From Candidatus Levyibacteriota bacterium (lineage in GTDB: Bacteria; Patescibacteriota; Microgenomatia; Levybacterales; UBA12049): a stretch of 64,000 nt of DNA. The stretch covers positions 21,777 through 85,776 of the forward strand of contig JAUSEW010000029.1 in the NCBI GenBank assembly GCA_030651475.1, read 5' to 3'. Below the pieces are notes generated by a model that was not told the origin of the DNA, made no database searches, and worked only from the letters and a program-made list of their open reading frames with translations. This document shows, piece by piece, positions 1,298-59,082 of this stretch (position 1 is the stretch's first letter; each line of letters begins with the position of its first letter). The position numbers and the translations under genes are program-made.

Positions 1298-1903
1298 TTA
1301 TTCAATAGTAATTCCGAGGATTTTGGAGCCGATTTGGAGTTTGTTTACGACGTCCATGCCTTTGGTGATGATTCCAAAATTTGTATACTGACCGTTTAAG
1401 AATTGTGAGTCTTTTTTGGTAATGAAAAATTGAGCATCGTTTTGCACTTTTCCATCGCCTCTGCTGGCAATTCCAAGAGAGCCGACAACAAATGGTTTAT
1501 TATTAAACTCAACCGGCATATTGCCTCCGCCTGTTCCATTGCCAAGCGGATCGCCACCTTGTACTACCCAATCTTCAACCCGATGAAATGTAAGATTATT
1601 GTAGAAACCGCTTTTGGCTTTTTGCACAAAATTATTTACAGTATTCGGCGCATCTTTTGAAAAAAGAGAAAGCGTAATATCTCCTTTACTGGTTTTGATA
1701 ATTGCCGTAGAAGTTGCGGTTGGATTTTCTGCCATAGGTGTTATTATAACAGTTGGCGAAGGAGTTGGTGTGGGATTCTTAGAAGGAATAGCCAAGGTTT
1801 CTTTTTGTGCGGGAGAAGCCTGTTGAGAAGATTTGTTGTTTAAGACGAGAACTGCGAAAAATCCCAAGATAAGAATAAATATAACCAAAATAAATTTATT
1901 CAT
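1298..1903 (-). CDS. peptidyl-prolyl cis-trans isomerase, cyclophilin type, with N-terminal membrane anchor/signal
   Basis: 201 aa; cyclophilin signatures FHRV..WVVQGGDP..GTGGGN and hydrophobic N-terminus. Confidence 0.75.
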   Translation of the reverse strand: MNKFILVIFILILGFFAVLVLNNKSSQQASPAQKETLAIPSKNPTPTPSPTVIITPMAENPTATSTAIIKTSKGDITLSLFSKDAPNTVNNFVQKAKSGFYNNLTFHRVEDWVVQGGDPLGNGTGGGNMPVEFNNKPFVVGSLGIASRGDGKVQNDAQFFITKKDSQFLNGQYTNFGIITKGMDVVNKLQIGSKILGITIE

Positions 1904-1916
1904 GTTGGCTATTATA

Positions 1917-2558
1917 TCAAAAATACATCAAATGTAGCCAATCAAATTCTCCTTCCTTGAGAATTTTTTTAACAGCGCCGATGGTTGTTTTGATTCTTCT
2001 TGCCCGTTGGGGTTCTCCGTCAGAAAATTTAGCTGGTTCTTGAGTAATGGTTGGTTTTGGTAAATTGAGCTCATCCAAATTTTCAAGAAATGCATCCAAA
2101 AAAGCTCCATCTCCAGATAATATATCTGACTTACGACAATGATTCGCAATTCCCCTTGCGCATCCTTCACATAGAATATCCGGTATTCCTTCTACAATTT
2201 CCGCTGGATGATTATCAGGCAAGTTTAGAAATTGTTCATCCGTTTGTCTATTATATTTTTCTACCCTATCAGCATCTTCCGTAGAAAAACCAAATAGCTC
2301 ATGAAAATATTTCAAATTTCTAAATACGTCTAGTGGTTCGATATCAGGGCTATTTCCGATAGCAAGATAGAAATAATTCTCCACTCGGAATCTCGTATAT
2401 CTTGCGTGTTCTGCTGCATATTCAACTGGGTTTTCAGCTCTAATCAGAAATGCAAAATCTTTAAGGTGGTGGCCGCGGATTACGAATGGCTTTGATCCAT
2501 CAACCTCTCCATTCACTCTTCGTACAGGATTAAGTACGTGTGTTTCAAGTTCAGACAT
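1917..2558 (-). CDS. hypothetical protein with CEGCARGIANHC cysteine motif
   Basis: 213-aa ORF; no family recognised. Confidence 0.35.
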   Translation of the reverse strand: MSELETHVLNPVRRVNGEVDGSKPFVIRGHHLKDFAFLIRAENPVEYAAEHARYTRFRVENYFYLAIGNSPDIEPLDVFRNLKYFHELFGFSTEDADRVEKYNRQTDEQFLNLPDNHPAEIVEGIPDILCEGCARGIANHCRKSDILSGDGAFLDAFLENLDELNLPKPTITQEPAKFSDGEPQRARRIKTTIGAVKKILKEGEFDWLHLMYF

Positions 2559-2783
2559 AGTGGGAAAGATTATATCATCCTACTCCTCTAGAATGCAAAA
2601 AGAAAATATGGTATACTAATTTTGCAAATTCTAAACTCTAAGCGCTAAATTCTAAACCAGCCTTCGCCAAAGGCTACGGCCGGCATAGTAATATCAAAAT
2701 CAGAATTACAGGAATTCAAAAGAGTTTCGAGCTTATAATTTTAAAAATTTGAATTTATTTAGGTTTTAGGATTTTTTATTATT

Positions 2784-4982: not shown

Positions 4983-6170
4983 ATGGCAGAAGCAACTAAA
5001 TATCAAAGAACCAAACCGCATGTTAATATAGGAACCATTGGTCATGTTGACCACGGTAAGACCACTCTTACTGCGGCTATTGCAACAGTTTTGTCTAAAA
5101 AAGGAATGGCGCAGGCCAAAAAGTACGAAGACATAGATAATGCTCCGGAAGAAAAAGCAAGAGGCGTTACCATAAATCTTACTCATATTGAATATGAGAC
5201 AGAAAAACGTCATTATGCTCATATCGATGCTCCTGGACATGCAGATTACATAAAAAATATGATTACAGGCGCCGCTCAAATGGATGGCGCTATTTTGGTT
5301 GTTTCAGCACCGGACGGGCCAATGCCTCAAACAAGAGAGCATATTCTTTTGGCACGACAAGTCGGAGTTCCTGCAATTGTAGTATTTCTTAACAAAGTAG
5401 ATATGGTACAGGATCAGGAATTATTAGACTTGGTAGAAATGGAAGTCAGAGAACTTTTGACTAAGTACCAATATCCGGGAAAAGACACTCCTATTATAAG
5501 AGGTTCGGCTCTTAAAGCTTTGGAGGGAGATCCGGAAGCGGAAAAACAAATAATGGCCCTAATGGATGCAGTTGATACATTTATACCTACTCCAAAAAGA
5601 GATACGGATAAGCCATTCTTGATGCCGGTTGAGGATGTTTTCTCTATTAAAGGCAGAGGAACAGTTGTAACAGGCAGAATTGAAAGAGGAATTGTCAAAA
5701 TTAACGATGCGGTAGAGATAGTCGGACTTAAAGAAACAAAACCAACTATAGTAACAGGTGTTGAAATGTTCAAAAAGCAATTGGATGAGGGTCAGGCAGG
5801 AGATAATGTCGGAGTTTTGCTTCGAGGAATTGAAAAAACAGATGTGGAAAGAGGACAAGTTGTTGCCAAACCGGGAAGTATAACACCCCATAAAGAGTTT
5901 GAGGCGGAGGGATATATTCTTACCAAAGAAGAAGGCGGACGCCATACACCATTCTTTACAGGATACAGGCCTCAATTTTACATTAGAACAACCGATGTGA
6001 CTGCGGAAGTTACTCTTCCAAAAGGTGTAGAAATGGTAATGCCTGGAGACAATACCAAAATGACAGTTAAGCTTATTGCTCCGGTAGCTTTGGAAGAAGG
6101 GCTTAGATTTGCCATCCGCGAAGGCGGAAAAACAGTCGGAGCCGGCGTTATCTCCAAAATAATCGCTTAA
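4983..6170 (+). CDS. tuf: translation elongation factor Tu
   Basis: 395 aa; [25 protein letters not shown] motifs. Confidence 0.98.
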
Positions 6171-6215: not shown

Positions 6216-6476
6216 ATGGCTCCAGAAATAGAAATATCACGAGACCAGGAAATTAAGGTATGTCAGTGGATTAAAGCAAAAGGTACGGAAGAATGGCTTT
6301 ATACAGCTGAAAACGACGAAATTGCTATGGCTTCCATCGTAGACAAAGAACCATTAATAATATTTCCGCATTATGCAAATGAAGCAAAGCCCATGCTATA
6401 TTGTAGCGAAAAACTTGCATCCGAACTTGCAAAAGATGGAATCATAACCCTTCCAAAACCTCAACAGAAGAAATAG
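6216..6476 (+). CDS. hypothetical small protein inserted between tuf and rpsJ
   Basis: 86-aa ORF, no recognisable motif. Confidence 0.3.
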   Translation: MAPEIEISRDQEIKVCQWIKAKGTEEWLYTAENDEIAMASIVDKEPLIIFPHYANEAKPMLYCSEKLASELAKDGIITLPKPQQKK

Positions 6477-6539: not shown

Positions 6540-6568
6540 TTGAATAATATTTTCTTATATAGTAAAAT
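6540..6568 (+). promoter_or_regulatory. sigma70-like promoter for rpsJ (TTGAAT-17 bp-TAAAAT), -10 ends 6 nt before the ATG
   Basis: read directly; no room for a Shine-Dalgarno leader. Confidence 0.45.
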
Positions 6569-6574
6569 AGCTGA

Positions 6575-6883
6575 ATGCCTAAAGGAAGAATACGCGTTCG
6601 TTTAAAAAGTTACGATGCAAGAGTGATAGATCTTTGCTGCCAGCAAATCCTAGATACTGCAATTAGGACTGGAGCAAAGGTTGTAGGTCCTATTCCTCTA
6701 CCTACCAAGAGAACTGTTTACGCAGTTAACAAATCTCCATTTATAGATAAAGACGCACGAGACCATTTCGAAATGAGAGTGCATAAAAGATTAATAGATA
6801 TAGTTTCCCCGACAGATAAAACAATTGATAGTCTTACTCATCTCGAACTCCCCGCAGGCGTCAACGTGGAAATAAAAATGTAA
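6575..6883 (+). CDS. rpsJ: 30S ribosomal protein S10
   Basis: 102 aa; IRVRLKSYD..LD........GA.V.GP.PLPT consensus. Confidence 0.95.
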   Translation: MPKGRIRVRLKSYDARVIDLCCQQILDTAIRTGAKVVGPIPLPTKRTVYAVNKSPFIDKDARDHFEMRVHKRLIDIVSPTDKTIDSLTHLELPAGVNVEIKM

Positions 6884-7066
6884 GTTGTTTCTTCGCGCTC
6901 CACCTAAAAATACTCCGTTTGCTAATCGGGGGATGCGATTCCCCCTCCCATCATACGCTTTGTTTCAAATGCGAACAAACAGAATGAAAGAGGGAATTAG
7001 GTAATTCCGCAGGTGTAGCTACAAAAACACCCCAAGGGTGTAAGATGTTGGTTTGCCAAAAGTAGG

Positions 7067-7510
7067 TTAGGGTTTCGTTCCCGTGTCTTTCGAGCTAAAG
7101 CCTAAGTGGCTTTTTAGCGCATTAAGCATGATTTGTTTTGCTTGTTCAATTAGCCCATCTTTCGTTTTATCATCCAGGACTTTATTCTTAAAGCGGAAAA
7201 TCATGTAGGGTTGATCTCCGTAAGCTACAAAATAGTCGTTGATTACGTCTTCTGGTATTTCTAATCCAATAAGTTGTGCTAAAGTTGCTTTTCTTACTTC
7301 CAAATCTCTTTGGTAAAGAGGTCTGAACATTGGCAGGAGAAATTGTTCCTCATCGCAATTGAATCTCCTTTTCCTGAACTCTTTTATTAATTCTTCCGAA
7401 GACGAAACCGCTCTGAGTATAACAACGTTATCTGCAATGTTTTTTTCTGGAATTCCTAATGCCAAAAGCTTTTCTTCCGAGCTTTGTCCATTAATTCTAG
7501 CTTCAGCCAT
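7067..7510 (-). CDS. hypothetical protein on opposite strand between rpsJ and rplC
   Basis: 147-aa ORF; no family recognised. Confidence 0.4.
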   Translation of the reverse strand: MAEARINGQSSEEKLLALGIPEKNIADNVVILRAVSSSEELIKEFRKRRFNCDEEQFLLPMFRPLYQRDLEVRKATLAQLIGLEIPEDVINDYFVAYGDQPYMIFRFKNKVLDDKTKDGLIEQAKQIMLNALKSHLGFSSKDTGTKP

Positions 7511-7635
7511 ATCGACGAATTATAACTTCCTGTTATTGTAAAAGCAAATTTAAACTTATTCTAGCCTCGGGAGAATGGTAGCAGAATAATTTTAAAAATA
7601 TGCTGAAATAAATTCAGAATGACAATTGGAAGCTA

Positions 7636-7664
7636 TTGCATTTATCCCCGTCTTCTTATATAAT
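7636..7664 (+). promoter_or_regulatory. sigma70-like promoter for rplC (TTGCAT-17 bp-TATAAT)
   Basis: read directly. Confidence 0.5.
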
Positions 7665-7744
7665 TACCTTTGAAAGTCATGTTTAACCGACTGGAGGTAA
7701 ATAAGGCTGCATAAATAGAAAGTTTTTGGGATTTTTTCCCTGAA

Positions 7745-7768
7745 GCGACTGTGTGCAGTCGCTTTTTT
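7745..7768 (+). terminator. intrinsic-terminator-like hairpin (GCGACTG-tgtg-CAGTCGC + TTTTTT) in the rplC leader, candidate attenuator
   Basis: perfect 7-bp stem, 4-nt loop, 6-T tract, 14 nt before the rplC ATG. Confidence 0.5.
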
Positions 7769-7781
7769 GGTTTTTGAGATT

Positions 7782-8552
7782 ATGAATGCAATATACGGTA
7801 CGAAAATAAAACAAGCGCAAATGTTCCTGCAAAACGGAACGCGTATCCCTGTTACTCAAATAAAGGTGGACGGTAATGTCGTAGCTGGAATAAAAACAAA
7901 AGACAAAGACTTATACGATGCTTTGCAAATAGGTGTTGGAGTAAGAAAAAGAGCAAATAAATCATTCCTTGGATTTGCAAAAAAAGCAAGTTTAACATTT
8001 ATTCCTAAGTTTTTACGCGAGATAAAGGTTGCGGATGGAGAAAGTCTGCCAAAATTAGGAGATGTTATAAAACCACAAGATGTATTTAAGCCCGGAGATA
8101 TTGTGGATGCCATTGGTATATCCAAGGGTAAAGGTTTTGCCGGAGTTGTTAAAAGGCACCATTTTAAAGGCGGACCCAGAACTCACGGACAATCAGATAG
8201 AGAAAGAGCCCCAGGATCAATTGGACAAACCACAACACCGGGAAGAGTTTATAAAGGAAAAAGAATGGCAGGCCATATGGGCTCGGAAAAAGTTACCATA
8301 AAAAATCTAGAAATCGTCGCAGTAGACGATATTTTTTTGTACGTCAAAGGTTTGGTTCCCGGTAGCGTTAACAGTCTTTTGAAAATAGAAAAAGTTGGAG
8401 AAAGCAAAAAGTTTGTTCCTCTGTATAAAGAGTCCTCCTCCGCTGAAGCTTCGGCGGGCAAGGAAGAGAAGATAGAAGTCGTAAAAGAGCCAAAAGCTGA
8501 AGCTAAGAAGGAAGATAATCAAACTAAGGAGGTAAAAGAAAATGCCAGTTAA
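7782..8552 (+). CDS. rplC: 50S ribosomal protein L3 with Lys/Glu-rich C-terminal extension
   Basis: L3 consensus (GTKIGMTQ-like MNAIYGTKIKQAQMF, KGKGFAGVVKRHHF); ATG at 7782 preferred over TTG at 7767 in ORF track. Confidence 0.9.
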   Translation: MNAIYGTKIKQAQMFLQNGTRIPVTQIKVDGNVVAGIKTKDKDLYDALQIGVGVRKRANKSFLGFAKKASLTFIPKFLREIKVADGESLPKLGDVIKPQDVFKPGDIVDAIGISKGKGFAGVVKRHHFKGGPRTHGQSDRERAPGSIGQTTTPGRVYKGKRMAGHMGSEKVTIKNLEIVAVDDIFLYVKGLVPGSVNSLLKIEKVGESKKFVPLYKESSSAEASAGKEEKIEVVKEPKAEAKKEDNQTKEVKENAS

Positions 8553-18674: not shown

Positions 18675-19478
18675 ATGATTAATATTAAAACGAATGAAGA
18701 GATTGAAATAATGCAACTGGGGGGGGAAATTTTAGCTGATGTTTTGTTTAAGGTTTTAGAGCATGCGAAAGTTGGGGTTTCGGAACTTGAATTAGATAAA
18801 TTGGCAGAAGAGTTGATTCTGAAAGCAGGAGGAGAACCTGGATTTAAAAAAGTTGCAAATTATAATCATACAATATGCGTATCCACGAACAATGTTGTGG
18901 TACACGGAATACCGACTAATTATAAATTTAAAAAAGGGGATGTTGTCGGAATAGACTGCGGAGTGTATTTTAAAGGATTTCATACGGATGCCGCACATAC
19001 GGTGCGAGTTAAAAGTTTCCCGCCTCAGCGGGATCCCTCAAGCGATGGGACAAAGTTTAAAGTTCAAAGTTCGGATGGGGTAGATAGGTTTTTAGAAACT
19101 GGAAAAAAAGCGTTGGAAAAAGGAATAGAGCAGGCGAAAATTGGCAATAGAGTGGGGCATATTTCTAAAGCAATACAGGATACGGTTGAAGGAAAAGGTT
19201 ACTCCATAGTTAGAAGTTTGGTTGGGCATGGGGTAGGCAGAAAACTTCATGAGGATCCTGAAGTTCCCGGATTTTTAAATGTTCCCATTCAGAGAACACC
19301 GCTTCTTAAAGAGGGAATGACTATAGCAATTGAAGTCATTTACAATATGGGCAAAAGAGATGTTGTATATGCTAATAATGATGGATGGACGATTAAAACT
19401 AAAGATGGAAGTATTTCCGGCCTTTTCGAAAGAACAGTTGCCATAACCAAAGAGAGTCCTAGGATACTAACCGTATAG
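18675..19478 (+). CDS. map: methionine aminopeptidase type I
   Basis: 267 aa; pita-bread motifs (GIDCGV, GHGVG, EPEV), operon position. Confidence 0.9.
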   Translation: MINIKTNEEIEIMQLGGEILADVLFKVLEHAKVGVSELELDKLAEELILKAGGEPGFKKVANYNHTICVSTNNVVVHGIPTNYKFKKGDVVGIDCGVYFKGFHTDAAHTVRVKSFPPQRDPSSDGTKFKVQSSDGVDRFLETGKKALEKGIEQAKIGNRVGHISKAIQDTVEGKGYSIVRSLVGHGVGRKLHEDPEVPGFLNVPIQRTPLLKEGMTIAIEVIYNMGKRDVVYANNDGWTIKTKDGSISGLFERTVAITKESPRILTV

Positions 19479-19549
19479 CATTGCTCTTTCTAGGCCAATT
19501 TGATATAATTTAAGATTACAAGCCAAAAGTTTGGTTTGATAATTTTTTT

Positions 19550-19768
19550 ATGGCTCATCAGGGGTCTTTTGAAGTAGAAGGAGTAGTAAAGGAATCATTG
19601 CCCAACACTCTTTTTAGAGTAGAATTATCTAATAAGAGTATTATTCTTTGTCATTTATCAGGCAAGATGAGGGTGCATTTTATAAAGATTTTGCCCGGAG
19701 ATAAAGTTCGGATAGAAATGACACCGTATGATAAGGCAAAAGGAAGAATAGTATATCGTTATAAGTAA
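19550..19768 (+). CDS. infA: translation initiation factor IF-1
   Basis: 72 aa; S1-like IF-1 consensus (G.V.E.LPN..F.V.L.N......SGKMR...I.ILPGDKV..E.TPYD..KGRI..R). Confidence 0.95.
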
Positions 19769-25009: not shown

Positions 25010-25575
25010 GGTTCGACTTCGCTCACCATCTTCGATACTTCTGCACGGTCATAGGCGAGCTTAAAGCTTTGCCGAGCTCTAAAAAGAAGAGATTCGGCAG
25101 CTTTAAATGATAACTTTAATTTTACGGCAAGTTCTTTTACCGGAACTTGATCTTCGTAGTGTAGCTTGAGAACTTTTTGGTAGCTAATTGATAGACTCTG
25201 AAGAGATAATTCAATTCTGTCACGGATTTTATTTTTTTCAAACTGGAACTCCGGTTGATTTATTTCAGCTGCGGCAATTTGCAGAAAAGGCATTTGAGAT
25301 AAAAGTATGGATTTAATTTTCTGTTTGCGATAAAAATCAACGGTTTTATTATGGGCGATTCCATAAAGCCAAGCCAAAACGCTTTCATGCCTTCTTAGCA
25401 AAGATAACGAATCAATTGCTTCCAAGAAAACATCATTTGTTAATTCTTGAGCATCTTCGTGTCTCGCAAGCCTTTTTAAAAAATAGGATAAAATTTTTGG
25501 AGAATAAGATTTATAAAACTCAATTACTGCCTTACTATCTCCAGAAAGAATACGTTTTATGAAAGAAAAAGACAT
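25006..25575 (-). CDS. RNA polymerase sigma-70 family, ECF-type sigma factor
   Basis: 189 aa; region 2 (DAQELTNDVFLEA, VLAWLYGIAHNKTVDFYRK) and region 4 HTH. Confidence 0.75.
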   Translation of the reverse strand: MSFSFIKRILSGDSKAVIEFYKSYSPKILSYFLKRLARHEDAQELTNDVFLEAIDSLSLLRRHESVLAWLYGIAHNKTVDFYRKQKIKSILLSQMPFLQIAAAEINQPEFQFEKNKIRDRIELSLQSLSISYQKVLKLHYEDQVPVKELAVKLKLSFKAAESLLFRARQSFKLAYDRAEVSKMVSEVEP

Positions 25576-25653
25576 AGGGAGATTATATCAGATTTTTGCT
25601 GCGAATGATTTTGGGAAATTTTACGACTAGATAGAAGGAGGTATTGACGTACT

Positions 25654-35625: not shown

Positions 35626-35654
35626 TTTATTATAGTTTCTGATATAATGCTTTA

Positions 35655-36299
35655 ATGGTTAAGAAAGCAAAAGCCGTAGCGAAAATTAAAGAAGATAAAA
35701 AATCATTTATTCTTGAAAAGCTTAAGACCCCAAGGGTTTTTATAACTCTTATCGTCATTCTTGTTGCAGGATTATTATTCTACTTCAGGGGACTTTTCGT
35801 AGCAGCTGTAGTTAACGGAGAACCCATTACAAGGCTTTCGTTAATTTCGCAGATGGAGAAAAAAGACGGTAAGCAAATGCTTTCTACTCTTGTAACCCAA
35901 ACTCTTATTTCCCAGGAGGCAAAGAAAAGTAAAATAGACGTTAGTCAGCAGGAAATAGATGCAGATATCAAAAAGATTGAAGCAGGCCTTACGAGCCAAG
36001 GTCAGACTCTTGACCAGGCGATGCTTGCTCAAGGGATAACCAGAGAAGATTTATCAAAAGACATTAGAATTCAAAAATTGGTAGAGAAAATGTTCGCCAA
36101 AGATGTGAAAGTTGCAGATAGTGAAGTCACAGATTATATAGATAAAAACCAAAGCTCAATTCCTACAAATTTAACTTCAGATGATGTTAAGAAACAGGTA
36201 AGACAGCAATTGGAACAACAGAAATTGTCAACAGTTTTCCAAGCTTGGTTGGATAGTGCCCAGAAGAACGCCAAAATAAACTACTTCGTAAACTATTAA
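35655..36299 (+). CDS. membrane-anchored SurA N-terminal-domain-like chaperone protein
   Basis: 214 aa; N-terminal TM then helical SurA-N-like region; no PPIase domain. Confidence 0.45.
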   Translation: MVKKAKAVAKIKEDKKSFILEKLKTPRVFITLIVILVAGLLFYFRGLFVAAVVNGEPITRLSLISQMEKKDGKQMLSTLVTQTLISQEAKKSKIDVSQQEIDADIKKIEAGLTSQGQTLDQAMLAQGITREDLSKDIRIQKLVEKMFAKDVKVADSEVTDYIDKNQSSIPTNLTSDDVKKQVRQQLEQQKLSTVFQAWLDSAQKNAKINYFVNY

Positions 36300-53242: not shown

Positions 53243-53273
53243 AACGCCTCACCAATAATAGTATAATGCCCTC

Positions 53274-54155
53274 ATGCAAAAAAGTATAAAAAAGGCAGTT
53301 TTACGGACTCTTATTTATAGTGATATTTTCGACTATCCTCTTTCAAAAGAAGAGATTTGGAGATTTTTGATTGGGCAAAAAATTGGCAGGGAATCTTTTA
53401 AAAAAGAGTTAAAGAGTTTGGCTAAATCTGAATCTACGCCCTTGGGGTGTAGCTATAAAAATAATTTCCATTATCTTTTGGGTCGGGAAAAAATTGTAGA
53501 AAAAAGAATCGAAAGAGAAAAAATAAGCAGAAGAAAACTTAAAATTGCGAGAAAAGCAGCGAGATGGCTTTCGTATATTCCCACCACGCTTTTTGTAGGA
53601 GTAAGCGGAGCATTGGCGTTAAAAAATTCCCATAAAGATGATGACATAGATTTATTTATTGTCACTTCCAAAAACACCCTTTGGTTTACGAGATTATTGA
53701 TGGTTATCTTGCTTATGTTGATCGGACAGTACAGGAAGCGCAATGCAAAAGATGTTTGTGATAAAATTTGTTTGAATATGTTAATTGACGAAACGTCCTT
53801 GCAATTGCCGTTGAAACAGCAGGATTTATACGGCGCGCATGAAGTTATTCAACTAATGCCAATTTCTGTCAAAAACAATATGCATCACAGATTTTTGCAA
53901 GCAAATAAATGGACGGAAAAGTTTCTGCCAAACGCAATAGAAAGAACCAAAAGCGGGCAAAAAAAATCATTATTCTTAATTCATAATTCATTATTCATTT
54001 TAGAGTGGTTAGCAAAACAACTTCAACTTTGGTTTATTAATAAACATAAAACAATAGAAGTGGTTTCCGATAATTTTCTTGCTTTTCACCCCTTAAATTA
54101 CAGGAGAAAGATCCTTAATTTATATAATCAAAAAATAAAAAAATATGGAATTTAA
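53274..54155 (+). CDS. hypothetical protein with nucleotidyltransferase-fold motif
   Basis: 293 aa; GVSGALALKNSHKDDDIDLFIV fits GS-x9-13-DxD of Pol-beta-type nucleotidyltransferases. Confidence 0.4.
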   Translation: MQKSIKKAVLRTLIYSDIFDYPLSKEEIWRFLIGQKIGRESFKKELKSLAKSESTPLGCSYKNNFHYLLGREKIVEKRIEREKISRRKLKIARKAARWLSYIPTTLFVGVSGALALKNSHKDDDIDLFIVTSKNTLWFTRLLMVILLMLIGQYRKRNAKDVCDKICLNMLIDETSLQLPLKQQDLYGAHEVIQLMPISVKNNMHHRFLQANKWTEKFLPNAIERTKSGQKKSLFLIHNSLFILEWLAKQLQLWFINKHKTIEVVSDNFLAFHPLNYRRKILNLYNQKIKKYGI

Positions 54156-58077: not shown

Positions 58078-58122
58078 TTGAAAAAATAAATTAAAACTTT
58101 CAAGATGATATAATACCTCTTA

Positions 58123-59082
58123 ATGACTGTTTTTGAAAATTTTCCACTTTCAGATATTATTTATTACGGAATTGGCGGGAAAGCTAGGTTTGTTTTGAGA
58201 GTTCAAAATAAAAAAGATCTTCTCGAGGCTTTGGAGTTTATCAGAACAAAGAAGATTAAAAAAGTATTGACTGTTGGATTTGGATCGAATCTCTTAGTGT
58301 CAGATAGTTTTTTTAATGGCGCAGTTTTGTGGTTCTGCAGGGCAGAATTTCCGCAAATAAAGTTTTTAGAAAATGGTTTAGTAAAAGTTTTCGCAGGAGA
58401 AAATCTTGACGACGTTATTCAATTCTCATTTCAGCATAATTTGATTGGTTTGGAATGGGCAGGAGGACTTCCCGGAACAATCGGAGGGGGAATTCGGGGA
58501 AATGTCGGTGCATTTGGCGGAGAAATAAAAAATTCAATTGAAAAAGTAGAAGTTTTCGATATTATCACTAACGAAATAAAAGTTTTAGACAATAAAGATT
58601 TAAAATTTTCGTATAGAAATAGTTACGTAAAAGAGAATAAAAACTTAATCGTTGTAAACGCATTTTTTAAGCTCTCAAAAGCAAATGAAAAAGAACTAGC
58701 GCAGGCAAAAAAGATTTATTTTTCCCATATAGATTACAGGAAGAAAAATCATCCTCTGGATTATCCATCCTGCGGATCTGTTTTTAAAAATATCACCGAC
58801 AAAGAGAATGTTGAGAGAATATTAAATGTTTGGCCGGATATAAAAGAGCAAACTGAAGACAAATGGCATGGGAAAGTGGCAATGGGCTATGTAATAAATA
58901 GATTGGGATTTTCAGGAAAAACATACGGAGGGGCGCAGGTTGCCGAAAAACACGCAAATTATATTCTCAATAAAAACAATGCTACATTTAATGATGTTGA
59001 AACTTTGATCCAGGAGATAAAAGATAAGTTTAATAAAACATTTGGTTTTTACCCCGAAGTTGAGGTGGAAATTATATCTTGA
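58123..59082 (+). CDS. murB: UDP-N-acetylenolpyruvoylglucosamine reductase
   Basis: 319 aa; FAD-binding GIGGKA, GFGSNLL, C-terminal MurB domain. Confidence 0.85.
   Translation: MTVFENFPLSDIIYYGIGGKARFVLRVQNKKDLLEALEFIRTKKIKKVLTVGFGSNLLVSDSFFNGAVLWFCRAEFPQIKFLENGLVKVFAGENLDDVIQFSFQHNLIGLEWAGGLPGTIGGGIRGNVGAFGGEIKNSIEKVEVFDIITNEIKVLDNKDLKFSYRNSYVKENKNLIVVNAFFKLSKANEKELAQAKKIYFSHIDYRKKNHPLDYPSCGSVFKNITDKENVERILNVWPDIKEQTEDKWHGKVAMGYVINRLGFSGKTYGGAQVAEKHANYILNKNNATFNDVETLIQEIKDKFNKTFGFYPEVEVEIIS

Follow-up and report, generated by a model that had tools for sequence, protein, structure and literature searches.

A putative ribosome-mediated transcription attenuator in the rplC leader of a Candidatus Levyibacteriota bacterium

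Overview

The DNA considered here is a 64,000-nucleotide (nt) stretch from a Candidatus Levyibacteriota bacterium of the candidate phyla radiation (CPR), i.e., positions 21,777-85,776 of the forward strand of contig JAUSEW010000029.1 in assembly GCA_030651475.1; this whole stretch is referred to as the window, and all coordinates count from its first letter as position 1. On its plus strand the window carries rplC, the gene for ribosomal protein L3 (7782-8552; Pfam PF00297), which heads a co-directional cluster of ribosomal-protein genes, with rplD next in line, that reaches to about position 19478. Ahead of rplC lies a leader with its own promoter, a short open reading frame (the mini-ORF), a set of alternative RNA pairings and a strong terminator-like hairpin; the analysis shows this anatomy, how it is conserved in relatives, which pairings compete with one another and that the ORF is there. 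We propose that the leader is a ribosome-mediated transcription attenuator of the leader-peptide type and give this reading a probability of roughly 0.5. The parts of the proposal differ in strength: that the hairpin is a conditional terminator opposed by an antiterminator is very probable, that the ribosome is the sensor has about even odds, and the direction of response that we prefer, in which more ribosomes would bring more termination, is a tentative suggestion.

The balance of ribosomal proteins in bacteria beyond the model phyla is largely uncharted, and the rplC leader provides a concrete and testable handle on it in hosts that cannot be cultured alone. If the proposal is correct, the CPR would have its first described regulatory leader of an rplC operon, and the case would be an unusual instance of a leader-peptide-type attenuator, rather than a mimic of ribosomal-protein or rRNA structure, acting on ribosomal-protein genes. 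The genome is low in GC (~37%), and the best relatives of its L3, L4, S10 and EF-Tu proteins come from Candidatus Levybacteria and other metagenome-assembled genomes of Microgenomates. For comparison, 160 loci around relatives of L3 were fetched from genome and metagenome collections, and 15 more were obtained by exact-protein look-ups. The relatives nearest to the window derive from groundwater of Hainich well H14 (ERZ1292645) and from the runs SRR22388013 and SRR22388088. The leader class to which the window belongs is called class A; it was studied in alignments of 9 and 14 sequences (the latter designated A3), with 12 distinct leaders.

The promoter and the terminator

As read from the sequence, the rplC promoter consists of a -35 hexamer TTGCAT (7636-7641) and a -10 hexamer TATAAT (7659-7664) on the plus strand, separated by a 17-nt spacer. 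A preliminary description of this DNA had credited rplC with a promoter of its own at 7636-7664, and this is borne out both by the sequence and by relatives, which keep the hexamers and the 17-nt spacing around a spacer of variable sequence. The pattern TTGCA[AT]-N17-TATAAT stands 5' of the terminator in every class-A member, with unrelated spacer sequences (its carriers are L081, L162, L164, L166, L169, L171-L175, L083, L006, L008 and L087), and most other leader classes have a similar promoter of the form TTGNNN-17/18-TAnAAT. From the usual spacing of ~7 nt after the -10 hexamer, transcription is predicted to start at about 7671. A promoter scan left the site unlisted because TTGCAT matches TTGACA at only three of six positions, and the bare motif TTG-N20-TATAAT is not beyond chance in the window (4 observed vs 1.5 expected); after the rplC leader promoter, the next such promoter on the same strand begins at 19481.

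The terminator hairpin GAAGCGACUG-UGUG-CAGUCGCUUU (7742-7765, plus strand; in DNA form GAAGCGACTG-TGTG-CAGTCGCTTT) begins 77 nt past the -10 hexamer and has ten base pairs, five of them G-C, a 4-nt loop and a predicted stability of -13.9 kcal/mol. It runs into the U-tract UUUUUUGGUUUUU (7763-7775), made up of T6 (7763-7768), GG and T5, and with its GC-rich stem, short loop and run of at least six U immediately 3' (U6GGU5) it has the features of an intrinsic terminator. It ranks first in a terminator scan, and no other terminator-like hairpin on either strand of the 64 kb comes near its stability, the next one reaching -8.8 kcal/mol. Canonical intrinsic terminators are rare in this DNA, the ~16 candidates on the two strands being weak and all except the rplC-leader hairpin lying at -8.8 kcal/mol or weaker. 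The bare motif is unremarkable by count, with 5 terminator-like sites within 5-12 kb against 6 expected. Since neither the promoter motif nor the hairpin motif is significant alone, the case rests on comparative conservation.

The preliminary description had placed a hairpin GCGACTG-TGTG-CAGTCGC with TTTTTT about 80 nt after the promoter; that core (7745-7751 and 7756-7762) is present, extended to ten pairs by the flanking bases. The same account had the terminator end 14 nt before the rplC ATG (7782-7784), and the T6 run does lie just 5' of it, at a distance that comes to 13 nt; the ribosome-binding site, called weak, indeed consists of no more than a GAG ahead of the ATG, but this is not unusual in a window where 22 of 65 genes have a Shine-Dalgarno (SD)-like motif and GGAGG is found mainly at internal operon genes. 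A gap of 13 nt leaves no room for a further promoter, and transcripts that reach rplC must therefore pass the hairpin.

Under a strict definition, 34 of 51 CPR-like loci have a GC-rich hairpin with a T-run no more than 130 nt 5' of rplC, against a background of 0.037 sites per 130 nt when the same scan is run over those loci. Among 102 other loci there are six more, and these also look CPR-like by record title or L3 identity, most of them lacking tuf on the retrieved piece. The spacer between the S10 and L3 genes measures 11-20 nt, without a hairpin, in Chloroflexi and other non-CPR loci, and 100-250 nt in CPR-like loci, or kilobases where genes have been inserted. The stems are wholly different between lineages (GCGACUG/CAGUCGC, GGUAGCC/GGCUAUC, GCCCC/GGGGC, GGCGCC/GGCGCU and others), and it is the structure of the terminator, not its sequence, that has been conserved. 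Within class A, 95% of the alignment cells of the terminator pair, and two pairs have changed on both sides. RNAalifold recovered only the terminator from the class-A alignment, and the antiterminator was tested explicitly instead.

The element also accounts for a set of misannotations. The L3 gene as called in public records begins, in some relatives, at an ATG that belongs to the loop of the terminator (GCGACTCT-ATG-TGGTCGC; L166 at 1501, L169/L170 at 1501, L173 at 1201), and the resulting L3 proteins, e.g., P0017, P0038 and P0115, are falsely extended at the N-terminus.

The antiterminator and the alternative folds

The minimum free energy fold of 7665-7800 lacks the terminator and instead pairs GGCUGCAU (7705-7712) with GUGCAGUC (7753-7760) and AUAG (7715-7718) with CUGU (7749-7752), at z = -3.0 relative to shuffles. 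The 5' strand of this candidate antiterminator (7705-7718, plus strand) takes in the mini-ORF's final two codons and its stop codon, and its 3' strand is made of terminator bases (7749-7760, i.e., the distal part of the 5' arm, the loop and the 3' arm). In the window the antiterminator duplex has a predicted energy of -14.3 kcal/mol, against -9.0 kcal/mol in shuffles (p=0.015). When the two forms are folded under constraint from the predicted start, terminator and antiterminator come to -29.1 vs -29.4 kcal/mol in the window, -20.1 vs -20.4 in L164 and -23.7 vs -24.1 in L083; in these three leaders the folds are predicted to be mutually exclusive and nearly isoenergetic. In L166, L169 and L006 the terminator form is ahead by 1.8-4.3 kcal/mol.

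The preliminary description had proposed covariation across relatives as a check on the leader, and pairs of both the terminator and the antiterminator do covary, modestly so within class A. In the 14 class-A sequences, 94% of the 102 cells of the antiterminator helix pair, compared with 24-59% when the partner columns are slid, and in the 9-sequence set the figure is 100%; over the 14 sequences, two pairs have changed on both sides (G-C, A-U; U-A, C-G) and two on one side. In its second block the helix changes together with the distal arm and the loop of the terminator, as AUAG:CUGU in the window and L006, UAGAGUC:GACUCUA in L164 and GGGGU:ACCCU in L083. Because the covariation within the class is modest, all leader classes were also tested together: in 37 leaders, the 85 nt upstream complement the loop and 3' arm of their own terminator better than in permuted pairings (z ~ -6; 0/20000), and relative to dinucleotide shuffles the mean z is -1.4, with 30% of leaders at p<=0.05.

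A third pairing would complete the set. Region 1, AGUC (7675-7678, plus strand), lies directly 5' of the mini-ORF AUG and has a possible partner in GGCU (7705-7708), part of the antiterminator strand; so paired, it would act as an anti-antiterminator and close a hairpin over the mini-ORF. The pairing AGUC(A):(U)GRCU is found in 94% of cells in the 9 sequences and in 73% in fixed columns of the 14 sequences, L006 and L174 using register-shifted partners. Inside the antiterminator loop the predicted fold has a further hairpin, P2 (GGGA-UUUUU-UCCC, 7728-7740, plus strand), whose position is occupied by AAGCU/AGCUU in L083 and by GAUUAAG/CUUAAUC in L006. Taken as predicted, these folds give the leader the 1:2 / 2:3-4 / 3:4 topology of classical attenuators. 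Two other pairings were set aside. An outer helix in the first fold, UACCUUU:GGAGGUA (7665-7671 with 7693-7699), has its 5' strand between the -10 hexamer and the predicted start, so RNA made from the promoter would lack it, and only transcripts reading through from further 5' could still form the helix. For leader class B, a long-range pairing GAUGCC:GGC(U)AUC was considered as an antiterminator and dropped as it is lost where the terminator changes (L002, L004).

The mini-ORF

The mini-ORF (ATG..TAA, 7679-7714, plus strand) has 11 codons, MFNRLEVNKAA*, and its ATG lies 14 nt after the -10 hexamer. In all 12 distinct class-A leaders its ATG and frame are kept and its stop falls at an equivalent point of the structure (11-12 codons), and the two clean indels within it are of 3 nt each. 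Beyond class A, an ATG that opens a short ORF 4-20 nt after the -10 hexamer is present in 25 of 25 promoter-bearing leaders, which represent ~12 independent sequence classes. With the ORF defined as one of 4-20 codons ending inside the leader (the observed lengths are 4-13 codons), dinucleotide shuffles would yield 2.9 of 25, which corresponds to a Poisson-binomial P of ~4e-25 if the leaders are independent. We infer from this conservation that the mini-ORF is translated.

The predicted peptides have little in common. Those of class A can be loosely summarized as M-x-x-R-[LM]-E-V-x-L-[AT]-T, and the mini-ORFs of other classes are unrelated to them in sequence (MPK... in the GATGCCCAAA class, MLVSPKL(T/A/S)N, MKLFLAQEF, MIFFFVRDNRE and others). 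Across the classes there is neither a regulatory codon run, of the kind that marks trp/his-type leaders, nor a shared enriched residue. What recurs is the placement of the ORF end, which in most leaders falls at the antiterminator strand or slightly 5' of it. Counted from the last base of the stop codon, the 5' strand of the antiterminator in class A spans ~-11 to +6 nt, and in about half of the other leaders examined the best-scoring antiterminator part lies no more than ~15 nt after the mini-ORF stop, which would put the strand within reach of a terminating ribosome.

Translation close to the 5' end of a transcript would be no peculiarity of this leader. Several leader classes have 6-8 nt between the -10 hexamer and the ATG, implying a leaderless transcript, and many first genes in the window, including rpsJ and orf147 (see below), have a TATAAT-like box that ends 6-8 nt before the ATG and likewise implies leaderless mRNAs. 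Such boxes near an ATG are found at 1903-1925(-), 2558-2580(-), 6540-6575(+), 7510-7547(-), 25575-25597(-), 35633-35655(+), 53252-53274(+) and 58101-58123(+), and a translation start at or near the transcript 5' end is probably routine for first genes in this genome. Inside the mini-ORF there is also an SD-like GGAGG (7693-7697, plus strand), kept in 13 of 14 class-A sequences. A three-codon ORF, UUG-ACU-ACA-stop, follows it by 5 nt in most class-A relatives; it was rejected, the window having AAG in place of UUG.

The rpsJ-rplC junction

In the window rplC is separated from rpsJ, the S10 gene (6575-6883, plus strand). Upstream of rpsJ lie tuf (4983-6170) and, between the two, orf86 (6216-6476; 86 residues, without a Pfam match), and rpsJ has a promoter-like site of its own, TTGAAT-17-TAAAAT (6540-6568), 6 nt 5' of its ATG. 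Between rpsJ and the rplC promoter an inserted gene, orf147, runs on the minus strand (7067-7510) from a leaderless-type promoter TTGCTT-17-TATAAT (7547-7519), the feature as a whole spanning 7067-7547; it has no Pfam match, and L081, the closest relative, lacks it. Where rpsJ and orf147 converge, their ends are separated by a hairpin GGGGGATGCGATTCCCCC that has no T-run (6929-6946), and a small terminator-like hairpin with a T-run is found on the minus strand 3' of orf147 (7041-7027).

L081 is the closest relative with a full spacer (L3 92% and S10 100% identical), and it has the identical leader arrangement without orf147, its -35 hexamer beginning 8 nt after the S10 stop codon. Alignment with L081 places the ~740-nt insertion of the window immediately 5' of the -35 hexamer. 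The junction between rpsJ and the rplC promoter (6893-7633 in the window) is a recurrent insertion site, with inserts of 0.7-3 kb in relatives, and insertions are also seen in L162, L164-L166, L174, L175, L006, L008, L011, L015-L017, L020 and L027. L162 has two genes on the minus strand there, L164 and L166 have toxin-antitoxin pairs (PIN/MazE), L174 has a gene for a HicA toxin (PF07927), and L175, L006 and L008 have other ORFs. The unit of promoter, leader and terminator adjoins rplC whatever sits upstream, be it S10 in L081, orf147 in the window or other inserts elsewhere, and its remaining with rplC despite the insertions is what would be expected of the operon's own control region. That the junction tolerates recurrent insertion can be put down to rplC carrying its own promoter.

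A proposed mechanism and the evidence against it

On the proposed reading, a sigma-70-type promoter (7636-7664) would start a leader of ~110 nt, in which the mini-ORF (7679-7714) opens almost at once and which closes with a strong intrinsic terminator (7742-7768) 13 nt 5' of rplC; as the terminator stands between promoter and gene, transcription of rplC and the genes downstream from the leader promoter would have to read through it. With no ribosome on the leader, the antiterminator would nucleate on the distal terminator arm once that arm is made, and polymerase would enter rplC. A ribosome finishing the mini-ORF would cover the 5' strand of the antiterminator, since that strand consists of the mini-ORF end, the stop codon and the next bases; with 7705-7718 masked, the terminator would form and transcription would stop at about 7768. 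The outcome would be a feedback in which plentiful initiating ribosomes lead to termination and scarce ribosomes to more ribosomal-protein mRNA. The sequence also accommodates an opposite, trp-like logic, in which the 1:2 pairing and then the terminator would form without a ribosome, and a ribosome held early in the ORF would favor the antiterminator.

The preliminary description had suggested that the terminator may gate the ribosomal operon. This is now supported by a promoter-leader-terminator unit that is conserved across Microgenomates, by the lack of room for a promoter 3' of the hairpin and by an antiterminator that covaries; termination here is probably conditional. A much wider generalization is possible but speculative, namely that Microgenomates run their main ribosomal-protein operon by a ribosome-sensing attenuator and not by a leader that binds a ribosomal protein, with a leaderless or nearly leaderless mini-ORF that reports free ribosomes and gates ~20 genes, the mechanism being retained in many lineages despite a complete turnover of the leader sequence.

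Several observations weigh against a ribosome-mediated attenuator. The mini-ORF lacks codon-position bias (entropy 0.68/0.69/0.70, with 265 nonsynonymous vs 76 synonymous differences), and the coding case therefore rests on the conservation of ATG, frame and stop and not on the peptide; if the mini-ORF is translated, it would be the act of translation that matters. Its 5' untranslated region in class A, ~7 nt without an SD sequence, makes it neither strictly leaderless nor SD-led, and the transcription start near 7671 from which that length is reckoned is itself a prediction. In a few relatives (L089, L010 and class D) the antiterminator strand lies 13-55 nt past the stop, and no antiterminator complementarity is detectable in L017, L018, L016 and L020. 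The covariation within class A amounts to two antiterminator pairs with changes in both partners, and the observed scores are reached in 18-38 of 500 column shuffles. The conserved internal GGAGG (7693-7697) falls outside the model and is unexplained by it, and sequence does not tell which sign the regulation has.

Alternative explanations

The most serious competitor, which we consider unlikely, is autogenous attenuation as in the S10 leader of E. coli, with an excess of L4 (or of L3 or another protein of the operon) stabilizing the terminator or a paused complex and the mini-ORF being incidental. The element does precede rplC-rplD, genes of which L4 is a known regulator in E. coli (PMC3616713), and Archaeoglobi have an L4 leader candidate 5' of rplC (PMC7247131). 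Conserved hairpins such as P2 and the terminator could be protein sites, and in class B the hairpin AGCCUAAUUAGGC resembles the terminator top GCCUAAGGC and could be a repeated binding motif. A mimic of a protein-binding site should, however, share a motif, and several unrelated leader classes occur here within one class-level lineage even though L4 and its rRNA site are conserved. The location after rpsJ instead of before it, and the failure to match either E. coli genomes or a family in Rfam, also argue against this explanation, which leaves the universal ATG and short ORF by the promoter, and an explicit antiterminator, unaccounted for. The conserved mini-ORF points to ribosome-mediated rather than L4-mediated attenuation.

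Less probable still is a constitutive, leaky terminator that ends or insulates transcripts from tuf-rpsJ or from inserted genes at a fixed ratio, the antiterminator complementarity being incidental. Such a role would suit L048 and class B, relatives that have no leader promoter and in which the hairpin lies directly 3' of rpsJ and could lower ribosomal-protein mRNA relative to tuf and rpsJ, and a junction that is an insertion hot spot might need insulation. In the window and most relatives, however, a conserved promoter stands 5' of the terminator, and the hairpin must therefore act on the operon's own transcripts; in addition, the antiterminator covaries and is specific to its own leader, the folds are nearly isoenergetic and the mini-ORF is conserved.

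There is only a slim chance that the unit is an independent small gene, for an RNA of ~100 nt or a peptide of 11 residues, with rplC expressed by leak-through. Its promoter, ~100 nt and terminator match the anatomy of a bacterial small-RNA gene, and the class-A peptide has its loose consensus, but the unit always lies immediately 5' of rplC, in most loci with a gap of 6-45 nt that holds no promoter; rplC and ~20 essential genes would be left without a dedicated promoter in the window; and the peptides are unrelated between classes and Rfam gave no match. Very improbable is an attenuator of riboswitch type, or one that depends on a factor, with a small molecule (e.g., ppGpp), a tRNA or a transcription factor as its signal. 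Growth-rate signals would be a sensible input, and riboswitches have the same terminator/antiterminator architecture. Against it stand short (80-105 nt), fast-evolving leaders with no conserved aptamer-like core across classes and no Rfam riboswitch match even at E<=10.

Other leader classes and a second promoter

Leaders ahead of rplC also occur in classes that are unrelated in sequence and that have strongly conserved motifs of their own. Class B (L003-L005, L007, L082, L084-L086, L088) has GATGCCCAAA... and hairpins; class C (L012, L017, L018, L048, L049, L096) has GTTAGTNAGCCCTAAACTCNCTAAC..GGATGTAGGG; and class D (L027, L035, L040, L113) has CAGTAGATCGCGCGTCG..GATACGGCGATTG. In class C, and in several further leaders, a motif CGGAT[GT] is the pairing partner of the terminator loop. 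Classes B, C and D could each be defined as an RNA family in its own right.

Searches of the window and of the loci of 12 relatives, covering all leader classes, with Rfam 15 at gathering score returned only one tRNA and no match to models of ribosomal-protein leaders. At E<=10 the region 6800-7900 gave only noise, e.g., SraC/RyeA on the opposite strand, and no riboswitch. The leader spacer yielded no tRNA, transfer-messenger RNA or signal recognition particle RNA, there was no rRNA in the window or the fetched loci, and blastn of the leader against 5,426 E. coli genomes at E<=1 found no match.

After the last gene of the cluster (18675-19478), the window has TTGCTC-17-TATAAT (19481-19509), another promoter of the kind seen at rplC. 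It is followed by CAAGCCAAAAGTTTGGTTTG (19519-19538), a weak hairpin of -7.3 kcal/mol, and a T-run, directly before an ATG at 19550 that opens an ORF of 72 residues resembling infA/IF1; this layout of promoter, hairpin, U-run and ATG (19481-19552) has no mini-ORF.

Comparison with known systems

In the S10 leader of E. coli, L4 acts together with NusA, and that attenuator is not known to have an antiterminator or a leader ORF. Like it, the rplC leader has an intrinsic terminator that would gate an operon containing rplC and rplD, and its terminator hairpin is close to the first start codon and could also affect translation. The differences are that the rplC element lies between rpsJ (6575-6883) and rplC (7782) and not 5' of rpsJ, that by blastn and Rfam it does not match the set of hairpins HA-HG, and that it has an antiterminator and a mini-ORF. 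Confined to Gammaproteobacteria, the L4-interacting RNA of E. coli comprises five hairpins and is located 5' of rpsJ (PMC3616713). The comparison with L4 and the E. coli S10 leader, raised in the preliminary description, is thus best taken as an analogy, the rplC leader being no homologue of it.

Ribosomal-protein leaders with terminator/antiterminator switches are known from Firmicutes, i.e., the L20 leader of infC-rpmI-rplT and the L10 leader (Rfam RF00558 and RF00557), which bind their cognate ribosomal protein through a motif that mimics rRNA; neither is known to contain a leader ORF. The rplC element would share with them the attenuation of a ribosomal-protein operon by alternative RNA folds, and differs in matching no Rfam model of such leaders. 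A survey of 20 new ribosomal-protein leader candidates gives an L4 candidate 5' of rplC only in Archaeoglobi and makes no mention of the CPR (PMC7247131). That candidate is likewise a structured leader directly 5' of rplC-rplD, but it is archaeal and has a different motif, and the passage that describes it reports no terminator or ORF architecture (PMC7247131). A genome-wide survey of attenuators describes leaders of rpsL and rimP and none of rplC (PMC2965389). A full-text literature search on Patescibacteria or the CPR with ribosomal-protein leaders, leader peptides or attenuation returned nothing relevant.

Leader-peptide attenuators include those of the trp/his/pheST type, that of pyrBI and the antibiotic-responsive ones found by Term-seq. 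The rplC leader resembles them in its promoter-proximal short ORF, in its pairings 1:2, 2:3/4 and 3:4, in a terminator before the first structural gene and in an ORF end placed at the antiterminator strand. It is unlike them in having no regulatory codon run and peptides that are unrelated between leader classes, in that the genes regulated would be those for ribosomal proteins and not biosynthetic or resistance genes, in that many of its versions are leaderless, and in that the signal would be translation itself and not one amino acid. A member of no described family, the rplC leader appears to work like a leader-peptide attenuator and to be placed like a ribosomal-protein leader.

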